Made by a program: the position numbers and the translations under genes. A stretch of DNA of 64,000 bases. Origin: Escherichia phage naam. Numbering within the stretch: the first letter of the stretch is position 1; each line of letters starts with the position of its first letter. The stretch lies in the sequence record MN850630.1. One strand, 5' to 3'. The notes below the pieces were generated by a model. It did no database searches. It saw nothing but the letters and a program-made list of their open reading frames with translations, and was not told the origin of the DNA. This document shows, piece by piece, positions 3,165 to 54,725 of this stretch.

Positions 3165-3716
3165 ATGATCAGAGCGCCATTAGATAATTTATTTCTTGAA
3201 AAGCTGGAGCTTGATGGTGTTGAGATCTTAATTGCTGCAAAGCTGGAGCTACCGACAGGAACTGTCAGGGTGTGCTCAGGCACTGGTGTTGTAGTAATTG
3301 AGGGGCAACATTTTATAGGGATAGGGGGATCAGCAACATTAACTGCTGTGTCTGAGAAAGATGCCACCAACTTCGGATCTGTGGTAGCAACATTGAACGG
3401 GTTTGATCCTAAGTATGTGGGTGATCTGCTGAAGACGGAGTATTCTGGTTGTCGTGCCACGTTGTACATTACCGCTATGGAGAATGGTCTACCTGTCACA
3501 ACTAATGGCTTGTTTGACGGCCTTATAACAGATATGGCTATTCAGACAGGTGAGAATAGTGCTTTGTCCATATCCATCTCTTCCATCTTCAACAGTTGGT
3601 TAAGAGGTTTTCCTTATCGGTACACGGAGGAAAGCCACAGCTCAAGAAACGATAATGACAGATTTTTTAAATATGTGGATCAGGTGGCGAGCCGCCCGAT
3701 CATTTGGGAGGTTTAA
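3165..3716 (+). CDS. Minor tail protein (tentative)
   Basis: ORF track starts at TTG 3150; the ATG at 3165 has an RBS (gagga) 8 nt upstream and TAATG-type coupling to the next gene. Confidence 0.5.
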   Translation: MIRAPLDNLFLEKLELDGVEILIAAKLELPTGTVRVCSGTGVVVIEGQHFIGIGGSATLTAVSEKDATNFGSVVATLNGFDPKYVGDLLKTEYSGCRATLYITAMENGLPVTTNGLFDGLITDMAIQTGENSALSISISSIFNSWLRGFPYRYTEESHSSRNDNDRFFKYVDQVASRPIIWEV

Positions 3717-50717: not shown

Positions 50718-51083
50718 ATGGAACAAATGAACGATCAAGCGTCGGTTGCGATGAACGAGCAAGAACAACCTCAAGAATTTTTCTTAGGGTTAAGTAAAGA
50801 TCAAGTGTCTCTTCTGCTAGTGCTTTCTTCTTTCATGGGAAGACTTCAGGAGCTTACACAACAGCCAGAGGCTGAACAATTATTCCAGGCTCTGCGTGAA
50901 GAAGAAAAATATCGTCGTTTGGACTATGCCTTAGGTTGGGTAGCTCAACAACGGGATATGCTGATGGCCCTCTCTGGGACCACAAGTTTTGCAATGGGCC
51001 TGCTGGCTCAAGTTCAGGACAAATTAATTCAAGCAGGGTTTGCACACACGGCAAACACTAACGAAGAACAAGGAGACAAATAA
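50718..51083 (+). CDS. Hypothetical protein
   Basis: 121 aa ORF with RBS ggag; coupled to the SSB-like gene. Confidence 0.5.
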   Translation: MEQMNDQASVAMNEQEQPQEFFLGLSKDQVSLLLVLSSFMGRLQELTQQPEAEQLFQALREEEKYRRLDYALGWVAQQRDMLMALSGTTSFAMGLLAQVQDKLIQAGFAHTANTNEEQGDK

Positions 51084-52309
51084 TGAGCGTTATCCAACAA
51101 TTCGCTAACCCGATGAATCCGCGTGAAACTGTTTTACTGGCTCACGGCATGATTAAACGTGTCAGCATCAAGCCTATCAAAGGTGCTGATCCTACAACAG
51201 GTATTAAAACCACTGTGTGGCAAGGTAAGAAAATTGAATCCAGCCACACCATCTCTTTACTGATTTCTGAACTGGATTCCTCTGATAACCTGCTTCAAGG
51301 TGGTGAAGAAGTCTGGATCAGCATGGGTGATAAACTGCTTAAACCGGGTCATCAAGACTCTGTCTCTGTTAAGATTGATGACAAGTGGGAAACCGTAACG
51401 CCAGGATGGATCGTAAATATCCCTTTGAAGGCAAACGAGCATAACGGTAAGACCTATTACAAAGGCTCACTGGCTAAGATGGTTAAGCTGGGTGCAGGAG
51501 AGGCTCCAGCAGCGGCTCAGCAGCAAAAACAGCAACAAGGTGCACAATCACAAGGCCAGAAGCAGAAACCTCAGCAGAATGCCAATCAGGACGTTTTACG
51601 CATCTATGGTGATGTGACTCAGATTGTTGGCAACGTGGTTACTGTTAATGACCACAAGATTGGCGAAGGTGCTATGGTTGTCACTGATGAGCAGCTTAAA
51701 GACCTGGTGGTAGGTGGTCGTGTTGCAGCCATTGTTGACAAAGACACCGGAAACATTATCAGTGGTTTCAAGGCCTATCCTCCTAAGGCAGAGAACGGCA
51801 CTCAAGGCTCTGGTGGCAAGCGTAAATCCTCTTACGACCCTATCGGTGTGGAGACGGGACATAGCATCAATGCGTTGCAGATCATCCTGGATCGCGGGTT
51901 TAAGGTGGACGACCCACTAGGCGTGGCTAAAACACTGCACGTAGTCACCATTGAGCTTAAGAAAGAGTATGCTCAAGCCACCAACCGAACTGAAGATGAA
52001 GTAGGTGCCAGTGTCGGCAATGCGGTGTTGAACGCTTGTCGCCGTATTGACAAGAAAACGAAAGTTGATGATTTTGCAGCGGCAATTACTGCAGAAGCAA
52101 AAGATGTCTTGACTAATCTGGCTGAGCCGTTGTACGATTGGATCAAGAACGGTGCTGGGTCCACTGACCATCAAGAACCTCAAGCTGCCAAACAGGAAGC
52201 AGCTCCACAGCAAAACACTGTAGACGCTCCTCCTGTAAATGACGAGGAAGATGACCCGATGGATCAGAATCCAGCACAGTACGCCTTTGATGATGACATC
52301 CCATTCTAA
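51083..52309 (+). CDS. ssDNA-binding protein-like, with Q-rich linker and E. coli SSB-type acidic tip
   Basis: Ends PMDQNPAQYAFDDDIPF; E. coli SSB ends MDFDDDIPF; internal QQQKQQQGAQSQGQKQKPQQ low-complexity linker. Confidence 0.55.
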   Translation: MSVIQQFANPMNPRETVLLAHGMIKRVSIKPIKGADPTTGIKTTVWQGKKIESSHTISLLISELDSSDNLLQGGEEVWISMGDKLLKPGHQDSVSVKIDDKWETVTPGWIVNIPLKANEHNGKTYYKGSLAKMVKLGAGEAPAAAQQQKQQQGAQSQGQKQKPQQNANQDVLRIYGDVTQIVGNVVTVNDHKIGEGAMVVTDEQLKDLVVGGRVAAIVDKDTGNIISGFKAYPPKAENGTQGSGGKRKSSYDPIGVETGHSINALQIILDRGFKVDDPLGVAKTLHVVTIELKKEYAQATNRTEDEVGASVGNAVLNACRRIDKKTKVDDFAAAITAEAKDVLTNLAEPLYDWIKNGAGSTDHQEPQAAKQEAAPQQNTVDAPPVNDEEDDPMDQNPAQYAFDDDIPF

Positions 52310-52324
52310 CATCTAGTTAACATA

Positions 52325-52353
52325 GCCCTGCCCGAAAGGGTGGGGCATTTTTG
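52325..52353 (+). terminator. Rho-independent terminator, GAAA-tetraloop hairpin (same 22-nt hairpin as at 42191)
   Basis: gccctgcccgaaagggtggggc followed by atttttg. Confidence 0.8.
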
Positions 52354-52371
52354 TATAAGGAGATCTGAAAA

Positions 52372-52788
52372 ATGACATTAGAAGATATCATTGTTAAACC
52401 TGAGAACTATGACCAATACAACCTGTCAACTCAATCTGTAGACCTTGGATGCGCCACGGTCAGTGCGTGGATGGTTAACGGAAAAGAGCTGGATAAATGC
52501 TTAGAAGCTCACATGTCTATTAACAAGTTTCTGGATGAAAATACTCACTGGCTTGAGGGTGCAGGTGTGTATGCTTCATGGTTGGAGAGTATGGGATTCG
52601 ACTACCAATCTGAAGAGGGGTGGTGGAGCTATTTAGCTATCTGCCCAGAGACGCTGCAATGCTTCATGAAATATTCTGAAGATTTGGAGTACCGGGCGGT
52701 GGTTGATAGTGCTATTGCCCGTTATAGCCGTAAACCTTTTTCCCACGACATTAAAACTGTGGAAGAATTTGTTGAAGTTTTCTGTTGA
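52372..52788 (+). CDS. Hypothetical protein
   Basis: 138 aa ORF with RBS aaggaga. Confidence 0.5.
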   Translation: MTLEDIIVKPENYDQYNLSTQSVDLGCATVSAWMVNGKELDKCLEAHMSINKFLDENTHWLEGAGVYASWLESMGFDYQSEEGWWSYLAICPETLQCFMKYSEDLEYRAVVDSAIARYSRKPFSHDIKTVEEFVEVFC

Positions 52789-52813
52789 CACAAGTTGAAA
52801 GGTGTGCAATTAT
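52785..52813 (+). promoter_or_regulatory. Candidate sigma70-like promoter (TTGACA-17-AATTAT)
   Basis: -35 overlaps the stop codon of the 52372 gene; -10 is weaker. Confidence 0.4.
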
Positions 52814-52884: not shown

Positions 52885-53082
52885 ATGATTTATCGAATCC
52901 GTGTAAGAGAAGATGCACCAGGCTGTTACTTTGACTGGCGTGGGTGGTGGTTTCTCCACCCGATGGATGGACTCACAGATAGAATGCTGGATGCTGCCCT
53001 TTATACAGATACCGATATAGAATATAATCTCTATCTGAAGGATGGTATAGATAACGGTCTATTTGAAGCAATTCCTGTGTAA
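52885..53082 (+). CDS. Hypothetical small protein
   Basis: 65 aa ORF with RBS aggagg. Confidence 0.45.
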   Translation: MIYRIRVREDAPGCYFDWRGWWFLHPMDGLTDRMLDAALYTDTDIEYNLYLKDGIDNGLFEAIPV

Positions 53083-53150
53083 GAAACTGTGATAGCCATG
53101 TTTTATGATCTTCCTGTAGCACCACCACCTGTTGAACCCGGAGAACTAAG

Positions 53151-53576
53151 ATGATCTATGAAATGCCAAAACTGATTCGTGACGATGCCCAAAACGCTCA
53201 CACCATTATTATGGGCAAACGAATGGATATTATTTGTCATAAAGATTTCTGGGAAGGAAGTTACTTCACAGAGTATTTTGGTAAACTGGACAATGGTCTG
53301 CTGATCCAGTTCTACACCGATGCGGAAAACAACATTCACTGGGAGTTCGAAACTGAAGATATCCATAAACTTTTCACCTTCCTCGATATTAAGGTTGAGG
53401 CCAAGTTTGAAGAAGGTGAGTGCGACGATTGTGGATTCTATGAGGTAACAGATTTCTATCTCCCGAGTGGTGAGAACCTTTACTATGAAAGCCACTTCGG
53501 TAACTCCAATATGCCACAGTGCTGGACTGAGTTTTTTGAAATTGCGGAAGAGGAGCTGGCATACCGTGATTATTGA
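53151..53576 (+). CDS. Hypothetical protein
   Basis: 141 aa ORF. Confidence 0.5.
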   Translation: MIYEMPKLIRDDAQNAHTIIMGKRMDIICHKDFWEGSYFTEYFGKLDNGLLIQFYTDAENNIHWEFETEDIHKLFTFLDIKVEAKFEEGECDDCGFYEVTDFYLPSGENLYYESHFGNSNMPQCWTEFFEIAEEELAYRDY

Positions 53577-54024
53577 TACTGTAGAGGGAGATCTAATCTC
53601 CATTTTCAAGAAAGGGTCAGGCCACATGATCCACGGTTGTAACTGCTTTCACACAATGGGTGCAGGTATAGCGAAAGATATTGCCCGTGAGTTCCCTCAA
53701 GCACTGGCAGCCGACAAAGAGACTGCTTATGGTAATCTAGACAAGTTGGGTATGTTTTCTTGTTGGGAGCATTTTGCCAAGAACAGGGTCGTATATGGAA
53801 TCAACCTGTATACCCAGTTCTACCCAGGGCCCAATGCTGAATACTTCTCAATCATGAAAGGTTTTGAGCGAGTCAACGAGGTATTCAAAGGTGTGTCATT
53901 GCCGTTCTACATTCCTAAAATCGGATGCGGTATTGGCGGTCTAAAGTGGGAACATGTAGAAGATGTAATTAATCTTGCAACCACAGATATTGATGTGGTT
54001 GTGGTAGAGTACAAAAAGTGTTGA
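53566..54024 (+). CDS. Macro-domain protein (ADP-ribose binding / de-ADP-ribosylating), candidate anti-defence factor
   Basis: Track start 53467 overlaps the upstream gene by 110 nt; GTG at 53566 is just before the fold begins. EGDLISIF...HMIHGCNCFHTMGAGIAKDI resembles the GDIT...NAAN...GGGV macro motif. Confidence 0.5.
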   Translation: MIIDTVEGDLISIFKKGSGHMIHGCNCFHTMGAGIAKDIAREFPQALAADKETAYGNLDKLGMFSCWEHFAKNRVVYGINLYTQFYPGPNAEYFSIMKGFERVNEVFKGVSLPFYIPKIGCGIGGLKWEHVEDVINLATTDIDVVVVEYKKC

Positions 54025-54049
54025 CGACCATCTTCTGAGGTGATATAGT
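54021..54049 (+). promoter_or_regulatory. Sigma70-like promoter (TTGACG-17-TATAGT)
   Basis: -35 overlaps the macro-domain gene stop codon. Confidence 0.55.
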
Positions 54050-54078
54050 TCCCACAACAGCTAAGAGAGGAGAGCACT

Positions 54079-54249
54079 GTGGAGACTAAAATCTTAATTC
54101 TTGCTGTGGTAGATACAACCGAAGGAGCTATATTCGAATCTGCAGGAGGGTATTTCTACCTACCATACGGAAAAAGAACTTCCGAGCCAAGTAAAGATTC
54201 AATCCTCAAAGTGTTCCCGTGTGCTTTCTGGCTGGAGATTTTGGTATAA
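54079..54249 (+). CDS. Hypothetical small protein (56 aa)
   Basis: Not in the ORF track; GTG start after RBS agagaggagag, just downstream of the 54021 promoter. Confidence 0.3.
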   Translation: METKILILAVVDTTEGAIFESAGGYFYLPYGKRTSEPSKDSILKVFPCAFWLEILV

Positions 54250-54275
54250 GATTGCAGAGGATTTGGGAGAGAATT

Positions 54276-54470
54276 ATGAGAAACAAGAAAGAGCTTTACT
54301 CTGGTGAGTGGATCAACGATCAACAGGTGGGAGAGGTAACCTGCTTCAGATGTTTTACCAGGTACAATCTTAAAACTGCACCAAAAAGTGTTCCAAAGAC
54401 TGATGGTTATTACATAAAAGAACCTCATTGCCCAAAATGTAAATGCCGATTGTGCTGGAGCAATCTGTAA
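54276..54470 (+). CDS. Small zinc-ribbon protein
   Basis: ATG at 54276 with RBS gggagag (track start 54219); CFRC...CPKCKC cysteine pairs. Confidence 0.5.
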   Translation: MRNKKELYSGEWINDQQVGEVTCFRCFTRYNLKTAPKSVPKTDGYYIKEPHCPKCKCRLCWSNL

Positions 54471-54474
54471 GAGG

Positions 54475-54502
54475 TTGACATCTGAAAACTGCAGTGTATA
54501 AT
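54475..54502 (+). promoter_or_regulatory. Consensus sigma70 promoter (TTGACA-16-TATAAT)
   Basis: -35 at 54475-54480, -10 at 54497-54502. Confidence 0.7.
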
Positions 54503-54533
54503 ATACGCATAAACTAACAGAGAGCGATGCATT

Positions 54534-54725
54534 ATGGTAATTTTTAACCGGGATGGTATCATAGTTAGACAGCACCCGTTCCTTGAATACTATCAAATTG
54601 AGCAATGGTGCTACGGGGATTGCAGTCACTCCTATGGGCAAAGTTGGGGATATCGTACAGTTTTTGAATCAACAGATCTTGACAAAGTAAGACAGAAAGT
54701 TTTAGAACTTATTAACAACAAGTGA
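54534..54725 (+). CDS. Hypothetical small protein
   Basis: 63 aa ORF. Confidence 0.45.
   Translation: MVIFNRDGIIVRQHPFLEYYQIEQWCYGDCSHSYGQSWGYRTVFESTDLDKVRQKVLELINNK

Follow-up and report, generated by a model that had tools for sequence, protein, structure and literature searches.

DarTG2 is a host system that stops the replication of phages by ADP-ribosylation of their DNA. The gene tk.4 of phage T4 was the sole significant hit obtained with a T4 transposon library on a DarTG2 host (HIDEN-SEQ), and a clean deletion of this gene, which has been named adfM, makes T4 sensitive specifically to DarTG2 (10.1101/2025.11.20.689424). Related to this, T4 without adfA and adfN is still resistant to DarTG2, and the NADAR-type AdfN proteins act only on the products of DarT1 (guanosine) (PMC11825919). 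In other phages, gp104 of PhiKZ (the chimallivirus AdfM) biochemically removes DarT2-made ADP-ribose from DNA and protects against DarTG2 (PMC13309987), and AdfB of ICP1, which has no macro domain, binds DarT directly (PMC11481870). Among cellular proteins, SCO6735, a macrodomain with glutamine at the position of the catalytic lysine (Gln type), efficiently cleaves thymidine-linked ADP-ribose from DarT-modified DNA and protects against DarT; its variants Q85A and Q85E are inactive and N27S is nearly inactive, and a water-mediated, lysine-independent mechanism has been proposed by its authors (PMC9411070). The present work deals with a macro-domain gene located at 53566-54024 (+ strand, 152 residues) in a stretch of 64,000 nucleotides from Escherichia phage naam (MN850630.1), the whole of which is called the window below.

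The macro-domain identity of this gene was already known from public annotation, and the counter-defence role from its T4 homologue. What is new is only the assignment to the Vequintaviruses, the Gln-type active site of the Tk.4 family and the pattern of alleles and exchange, the last being of modest weight.

Fold and active site

The product is a stand-alone macro domain of the ALC1-like (TARG1/DarG) class, as concluded from profile and PDB matches, an AlphaFold model and its Foldseek ranking. It matches the Pfam Macro profile (PF01661) with 25.9 bits against a gathering cut-off of 22 (E 1e-5), as most of the listed homologues likewise do, and it matches PHROG 335, which also contains T4 Tk.4 and PhiKZ gp104, at 1.7e-59. 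In the PDB, the sequence and profile searches match SCO6735, BT1257, TARG1, Poa1p and the DarG proteins of M. tuberculosis and T. aquaticus, and the best NCBIfam and PADLOC matches are both DarG, covering its macro part only. The AlphaFold model, made from 60 homologues (predicted local distance difference test, pLDDT, 94.9; predicted template modelling score, pTM, 0.90), has the three-layer alpha/beta/alpha macro fold and gives TARG1, Poa1p and DarG as the top ranks in Foldseek. The nearest neighbours in structure and sequence belong to the ALC1-like class (TARG1/DarG/Poa1p/SCO6735) and not to MacroD, PARG or viral nsP3.

An earlier note on this DNA had called the protein a macro domain and had named a profile search and a structure prediction as checks; the Pfam and PHROG profiles and the predicted structure both agree with that call, with PF01661 above its threshold and a confident macro fold. 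The segment quoted in that note (HMIHGCNCFHTMGAGIAKDI) is present, but the motif with which it had been compared, GDIT...NAAN...GGGV, is of the MacroD type and belongs to another branch. The signature of the window protein (HGCNC..MGAGIA / NLYTQ / PKIGCGIGG.W) is that of the TARG1/DarG-like branch.

Within this branch the protein and T4 Tk.4 can be aligned over their full length, with 39% identity across 150 residues (E 1e-43). Both are stand-alone proteins of about 150 residues in PHROG 335, and they have in common the motifs HGCNCFHTMG.G.A, NLYTQ and P(K/R)IG.GIG..W as well as a glutamine at the catalytic position. Full-length homology and shared motifs place the window protein in the Tk.4-type AdfM family, and the record of rV5 already uses the name Tk.4. 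By tblastn the family is matched in 2,831 phage records. The gene is a real protein-coding gene under constraint: the ratio of nonsynonymous to synonymous substitution rates (dN/dS) amounts to 0.10-0.15 in comparisons with allelic orthologues (dS around 1), which corresponds to purifying selection.

The active site was analysed in an alignment of 117 family members together with T4 Tk.4 and the sequences of SCO6735, BT1257, DarG and TARG1 obtained in the PDB searches. The first ADP-ribose-binding loop (53632-53673, + strand; residues 23-36, HGCNCFHTMGAGIA) includes His23 and Asn26, which correspond to His24 and Asn27 of SCO6735, Asn26 being also the equivalent of DarG Asn22. Gly24, Asn26, Cys27, Gly34 and Ala36 are invariant in the 117 family members, and His23 is found in all except one (116/117). 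In the NLYTQ motif (53803-53817, + strand; residues 80-84), whose Asn80, Tyr82 and Thr83 are invariant or nearly so, Gln84 stands at the position of the catalytic lysine; it aligns with Lys80 of M. tuberculosis DarG, Lys84 of TARG1 and Gln85 of SCO6735, and is present in every one of the 117 relatives. The second loop, which binds the diphosphate (53914-53949, + strand; residues 117-128, PKIGCGIGGLKW), contains Gly120 and Gly122, equivalent to Gly126 and Gly128 of SCO6735 and to Gly121 and Gly123 of TARG1. These two glycines and Pro117 are invariant, and Gly124 occupies the place of the catalytic Asp125 of TARG1.

As read from this alignment, the active site of the Tk.4 family is of the Gln type, which is a new observation: Gln84, Asn26, His23, Gly120 and Gly122 match both SCO6735 and BT1257. 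The basic DNA contacts of SCO6735 are not matched, with Ala33 in place of Lys34 and without the loop insertion that carries Lys89. The presence of glutamine instead of lysine, in common with T4 Tk.4, implies for the family a mechanism like that of SCO6735, and not that of DarG, across a widespread group of phages. Catalysis would then be independent of lysine, as proposed for SCO6735: Asn26 would hold Gln84, which would position the distal ribose, and the reaction would be carried out through a water molecule.

The same residues separate the protein from two cellular relatives. An identity as TARG1 was rejected because the Lys84/Asp125 dyad is replaced by Gln84 and Gly124. An identity as DarG antitoxin (NF048014) was rejected as well, since the match reaches 45.2 bits against an equivalog cut-off of 250 and covers only positions 3-144 of the 338 in the profile, and the C-terminal domain, an adjacent darT and the catalytic lysine are all missing. 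The neighbours of the gene are small phage open reading frames with no Pfam match or with a zinc ribbon only, assigned to PHROGs of unassigned function.

The conservation of the pocket has to be considered when asking whether catalysis is the main activity of the protein. A mainly non-catalytic role could consist of binding and blocking DarT, as the C-terminal domain of DarG, AdfA and AdfB do, or of sequestering an ADP-ribose derivative. A precedent is given by the dead Q85A variant of SCO6735, which still inhibits DarT by interaction, and does so more than the DarG and TARG1 mutants (PMC9411070); moreover, the surface residues and the hairpin at residues 70-75 of the phage proteins differ sharply between alleles, whereas the pocket is invariant. 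Nevertheless, all the pocket residues needed for hydrolysis in SCO6735 are invariant across the 117 relatives, which mere binding would not require, and no counterpart of the DarT-binding C-terminal domain of DarG is found. A non-catalytic role is therefore considered highly improbable.

Proposed function and exchange of the gene

The function that we consider probable, by analogy with T4 Tk.4 and SCO6735, is the early removal of the ADP-ribose that DarT2 adds to thymidines in single-stranded phage DNA, by which the DarTG2 defence would be defeated. The protein would be made from a group of small genes with non-structural products that lies downstream of the DNA polymerase gene, and it would bind the ADP-ribose put by the host DarT2 on thymidines of the phage DNA. 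Hydrolysis of the bond between ribose and thymine would release ADP-ribose and restore a template that can be replicated, and a DarTG2-type abortive defence would then fail. What we infer in this proposal is that the substrate is thymidine-linked ADP-ribose in DNA, that DarTG2 is the defence countered, and when the gene is expressed. A role against host ADP-ribosyltransferase toxins had been suggested in the earlier note, and it gains support, by analogy, from the homology to T4 Tk.4 and from the SCO6735-like active site; the alternative offered there, an interference with ADP-ribose-based signalling, gained none.

Several points weigh against this proposal. The anti-DarTG2 activity of Tk.4-type proteins has been demonstrated in T4 alone, and the evidence for it, published as a preprint, is solely genetic; the role in Vequintaviruses would follow by homology to a protein with just 39% identity. 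Besides, the window allele lacks the two basic residues (Lys34 and Lys89) that aid SCO6735 on DNA. The class is often promiscuous, with SCO6735 and TARG1 acting also on protein-linked ADP-ribose (PMC9411070), so that DNA could be one of several substrates and not necessarily the principal one. Finally, the timing of expression is deduced from gene position and consensus promoter matches.

The question of the substrate leads to a second explanation, in which the protein would be a de-ADP-ribosylase with another relevant substrate, either an ADP-ribosylated protein or an ADP-ribosylated RNA; it could, for example, be modified by another ADP-ribosyltransferase toxin or defence effector of the host, or carry a mark left by a phage enzyme. 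This is regarded as rather unlikely. Enzymes of the same class do act on multiple substrates, TARG1 and SCO6735 removing glutamate-linked ADP-ribose from proteins (PMC9411070), and in structure the window protein resembles TARG1 as much as DarG. However, the Lys/Asp dyad of TARG1 is absent, and T4 Tk.4, the sole family member with a known phenotype, is specific for DarTG2 (10.1101/2025.11.20.689424). In addition, a non-exhaustive search found no ADP-ribosyltransferase gene in the examined parts of the window or of the rV5 annotation.

Returning to the removal of ADP-ribose from DNA, two further lines of evidence were counted in its favour. The first one is dispensability. In the supplementary tables of HIDEN-SEQ, the orthologue of the gene in Bas54 (bas54_0092) has insertions at all 31 of its 31 TA sites and is classed as 'Non-essential' on E. 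coli K-12, and T4 tk.4, disrupted at 45 of 46 TA sites, is non-essential on K-12 too (10.1101/2025.11.20.689424). The K-12 host of the Bas54 transposon screen carried no DarTG plasmid; a gene that is non-essential under these conditions fits an accessory counter-defence role. In one comparison with a clinical isolate reported in the same tables, bas54_0092 was not depleted; Bas54 is also known as MaxBurger.

The second line of evidence comes from the distribution of the gene. Compared with two close Vequintaviruses, the coding sequence has 78-79% nucleotide identity and every flanking gene has 87-99%, the mismatches being confined to a sharp island of divergence at about 53600-54020. For near-identical Vequintaviruses the figures are 79% for the gene and 94-99% for its flanks. 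In three distant relatives the opposite is observed, with a macro protein that is 75-85% identical next to neighbours that are about 40-50% identical or undetectable; the upstream gene of 141 residues accompanies it in some distant relatives. Outside the subfamily, the nearest relative is that of the T4-like Krischvirus RB49 (67.5%). Divergence as an island in close phages, together with better conservation than the flanks in distant ones, indicates that phages exchange the gene horizontally, as an accessory cassette that moves separately from their backbone. Such exchange is common for anti-defence genes and was for this reason counted for the counter-defence role.

The two alleles found in Vequintaviruses differ at position 33, which is the position of SCO6735 Lys34, and in the hairpin at residues 70-75, whereas their pocket residues are identical. 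The window allele has Ala33 and the loop FAKNRV; that of O157 typing phage 14 has Lys33 and the loop LSPIGI. Through such differences the protein might be adjusted to different variants of DarT2, or might more easily escape recognition by the host.

The pattern of exchange also bears on a third explanation, a metabolic enzyme of the Poa1p type (ADP-ribose-1''-phosphate phosphatase or O-acetyl-ADP-ribose deacetylase) that would clear by-products of nicotinamide adenine dinucleotide (NAD) metabolism or of RNA repair. Exchange between phage lineages without regard to the backbone is more in keeping with an arms-race gene than with a housekeeping gene. It is true that His23 and Thr30 align with His23 and Ser30 of Poa1p, residues that are mutated in deposited structures, and that the family is labelled 'phosphatase' by T4, RefSeq and PHROG, but this label stems from the remark 'contains A1pp phosphatase motif', attached to the gene in the record of T4, and not from an assay. 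Since the phenotype of the T4 homologue is specific to defence and a partner gene for such a pathway was not found nearby, a Poa1p-type function appears quite improbable.

Gene start and neighbourhood

The macro gene has a GTG start at 53566 and a TGA stop at 54022-54024, and its product begins (M)IIDTVEGDLI, that is, (M)IIDTVEGDLISIF. A Shine-Dalgarno sequence, GAGGAG, can be read at 53550-53555 (+ strand), 10 nucleotides 5' of the GTG and within the 3' end of the upstream gene, where it would serve as the ribosome-binding site. That upstream gene (53151-53576, + strand; 141 residues), of unassigned function, for which neither informative homologues nor a matching fold turned up, shares 11 nucleotides with the macro gene. 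The overlap and the position of the Shine-Dalgarno sequence inside the upstream gene make translational coupling of the two genes likely.

A longer open reading frame obtained mechanically (53467-54024, + strand; 185 residues) shares 110 nucleotides with the upstream gene (end at 53576), about as the earlier note had stated. This reading from the GTG at 53467 was rejected, given that the homologues are all of about 150 residues (their lengths cluster at 147-160) and start at the position of 53566. The equivalent of this start is annotated in A51.2, slur16, O157 typing phage 14, HMD-6, rV5 and Bas52-55, and RB49 has an ATG at the equivalent codon. The start at 53566 favoured in the earlier note is thus backed by the GAGGAG sequence, by the annotation of relatives and by the RB49 codon.

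The 1.6-kb stretch around the gene has 97-98% identity to many Vequintavirus (rV5-like) phages of E. coli, including slur16, slur12, A51.2 and the BASEL phages Bas52-55 and Bas59. Orthologues are ORF209 'Tk.4' of rV5, bas54_0092 and A512_65. The public label is "macro domain protein" in A51.2, slur12, typing phage 14 and HMD-6; other labels are "phosphatase" (RefSeq slur16), "Tk.4 conserved hypothetical protein" (rV5 ORF209), "Poa1p-like family protein" and "hypothetical protein". As a separate observation, the region 53000-54600 of the window has about 98% identity to 16 records that carry the name 'Campylobacter phage' (C15 and A12a, of 135.4 kb, are examples), which suggests mislabelled or contaminating phages in the deposits or an unexpectedly wide host range.

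The gene lies within a long co-directional array of small unassigned genes, on the downstream side of the DNA polymerase gene. Ahead of the local gene group, at 52325-52346, there is a hairpin with a T-run after it, and sigma-70-like matches are found at 52785-52813 and 53000-53028. In rV5, promoters of the sigma-70 type are annotated throughout this arm of the genome. Gene position and promoter matches make expression before or during replication plausible. Besides, a perfect sigma-70 consensus (TTGACA-16 nucleotides-TATAAT) at 54475-54502 (+ strand), 3' of the local group and just ahead of the gene at 54534, is probably the promoter annotated as P205 in rV5.

A search by Pfam among ten mid-size open reading frames of the window, which was non-exhaustive, gave no NADAR (AdfN) or other ADP-ribose-related gene, and none is listed in the rV5 annotation of the corresponding regions. 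Downstream, a zinc-ribbon gene (54276-54470, + strand; 64 residues) matches PF23903 (Phage_zn_bind_2) at 9e-22, and RB49 has a homologue with 75% identity (at 3446-3640 of the RB49 sequence compared) directly after its macro gene and overlapping it. This gene was rejected as the counterpart of T4 tk.3, because the two do not align and belong to different PHROGs.

Two other observations concern the DNA 5' of the local group. The gene at 51083-52309 (+ strand; 408 residues), 'hypothetical' in all records, encodes a protein whose linker is rich in Gln and of low complexity and whose C-terminus is acidic (...AFDDDIPF); its last six residues are those of the C-terminal tip of E. coli SSB. Neither Pfam nor PDB sequence searches give a match for this protein, its PHROG (4477) is of unassigned function, and its Bas54 orthologue, bas54_0087, is classed as essential (8 of 57 TA sites disrupted). 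The protein may act as the phage's own single-stranded-DNA-binding protein, or may imitate the tail of SSB. At the position of 52309-52372, rV5, slur16 and Bas54 have a gene of about 580-620 bp annotated as 'endonuclease VII' or 'putative homing endonuclease', which is absent from the window, A51.2, typing phage 14 and HMD-6, where only the hairpin and T-run (52325-52346 in the window) remain; this looks like a presence/absence polymorphism of a mobile endonuclease.

Comparison with known systems

Phages of the rV5 type have a broad host range on E. coli and have been considered for biocontrol and therapy, and a probable anti-DarTG2 enzyme in them helps to foresee the hosts that can be overcome. 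A putative function is thereby provided for a gene that most records call "hypothetical" or "phosphatase"; no new question is opened, the counter-defence mechanism having been described before and being extended here.

The described phage system most similar to this locus is that of T4. The similarity is limited to the protein, given that T4 belongs to the Straboviridae and this phage to the Vequintavirinae, the neighbours are others and the T4 genes vs and tk.3 are without counterparts here. PhiKZ gp104 is also a phage stand-alone macrodomain, but it is of the Lys type (FPTK, Lys78), DarG-like and imported into the phage nucleus, and its identity to the window protein is only 22% (pairwise E 9e-5); in its case the fold class appears to have been recruited separately. 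Related to this, it could be proposed, as a tentative and rather doubtful idea, that the Tk.4-type AdfM is a lysine-independent Gln-type lineage recruited apart from the Lys-type PhiKZ AdfM and DarG2, and that it travels as a mobile cassette with diversifying alleles.

With regard to cellular macrodomains, those of the DarG2 antitoxins (M. tuberculosis 5M3I, T. aquaticus 5M31/5M3E and Thermosipho DarTG 7OMU) differ in that the catalytic Lys80 of DarG corresponds to Gln84 and that the C-terminal DarT-binding domain is without counterpart in the 152 residues of the window protein. Human TARG1 (C6orf130; 4J5S) and yeast Poa1p (6LFQ) have protein-linked ADP-ribose, O-acetyl-ADP-ribose and ADP-ribose-1''-phosphate as substrates. 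Streptomyces coelicolor SCO6735 (5E3B) and Bacteroides BT1257 (2AFC/2FG1) have glutamine in place of lysine and the conserved His, Asn and Gly-x-Gly found here. The differences from this type are an identity of only about 22%, the cellular nature of SCO6735, a mobile loop that in SCO6735 has an insertion of at least five residues with Lys89, missing in the window protein, and the change of Lys34 to Ala33. Among all these systems, the window protein, a Tk.4-type AdfM, would work most like SCO6735.
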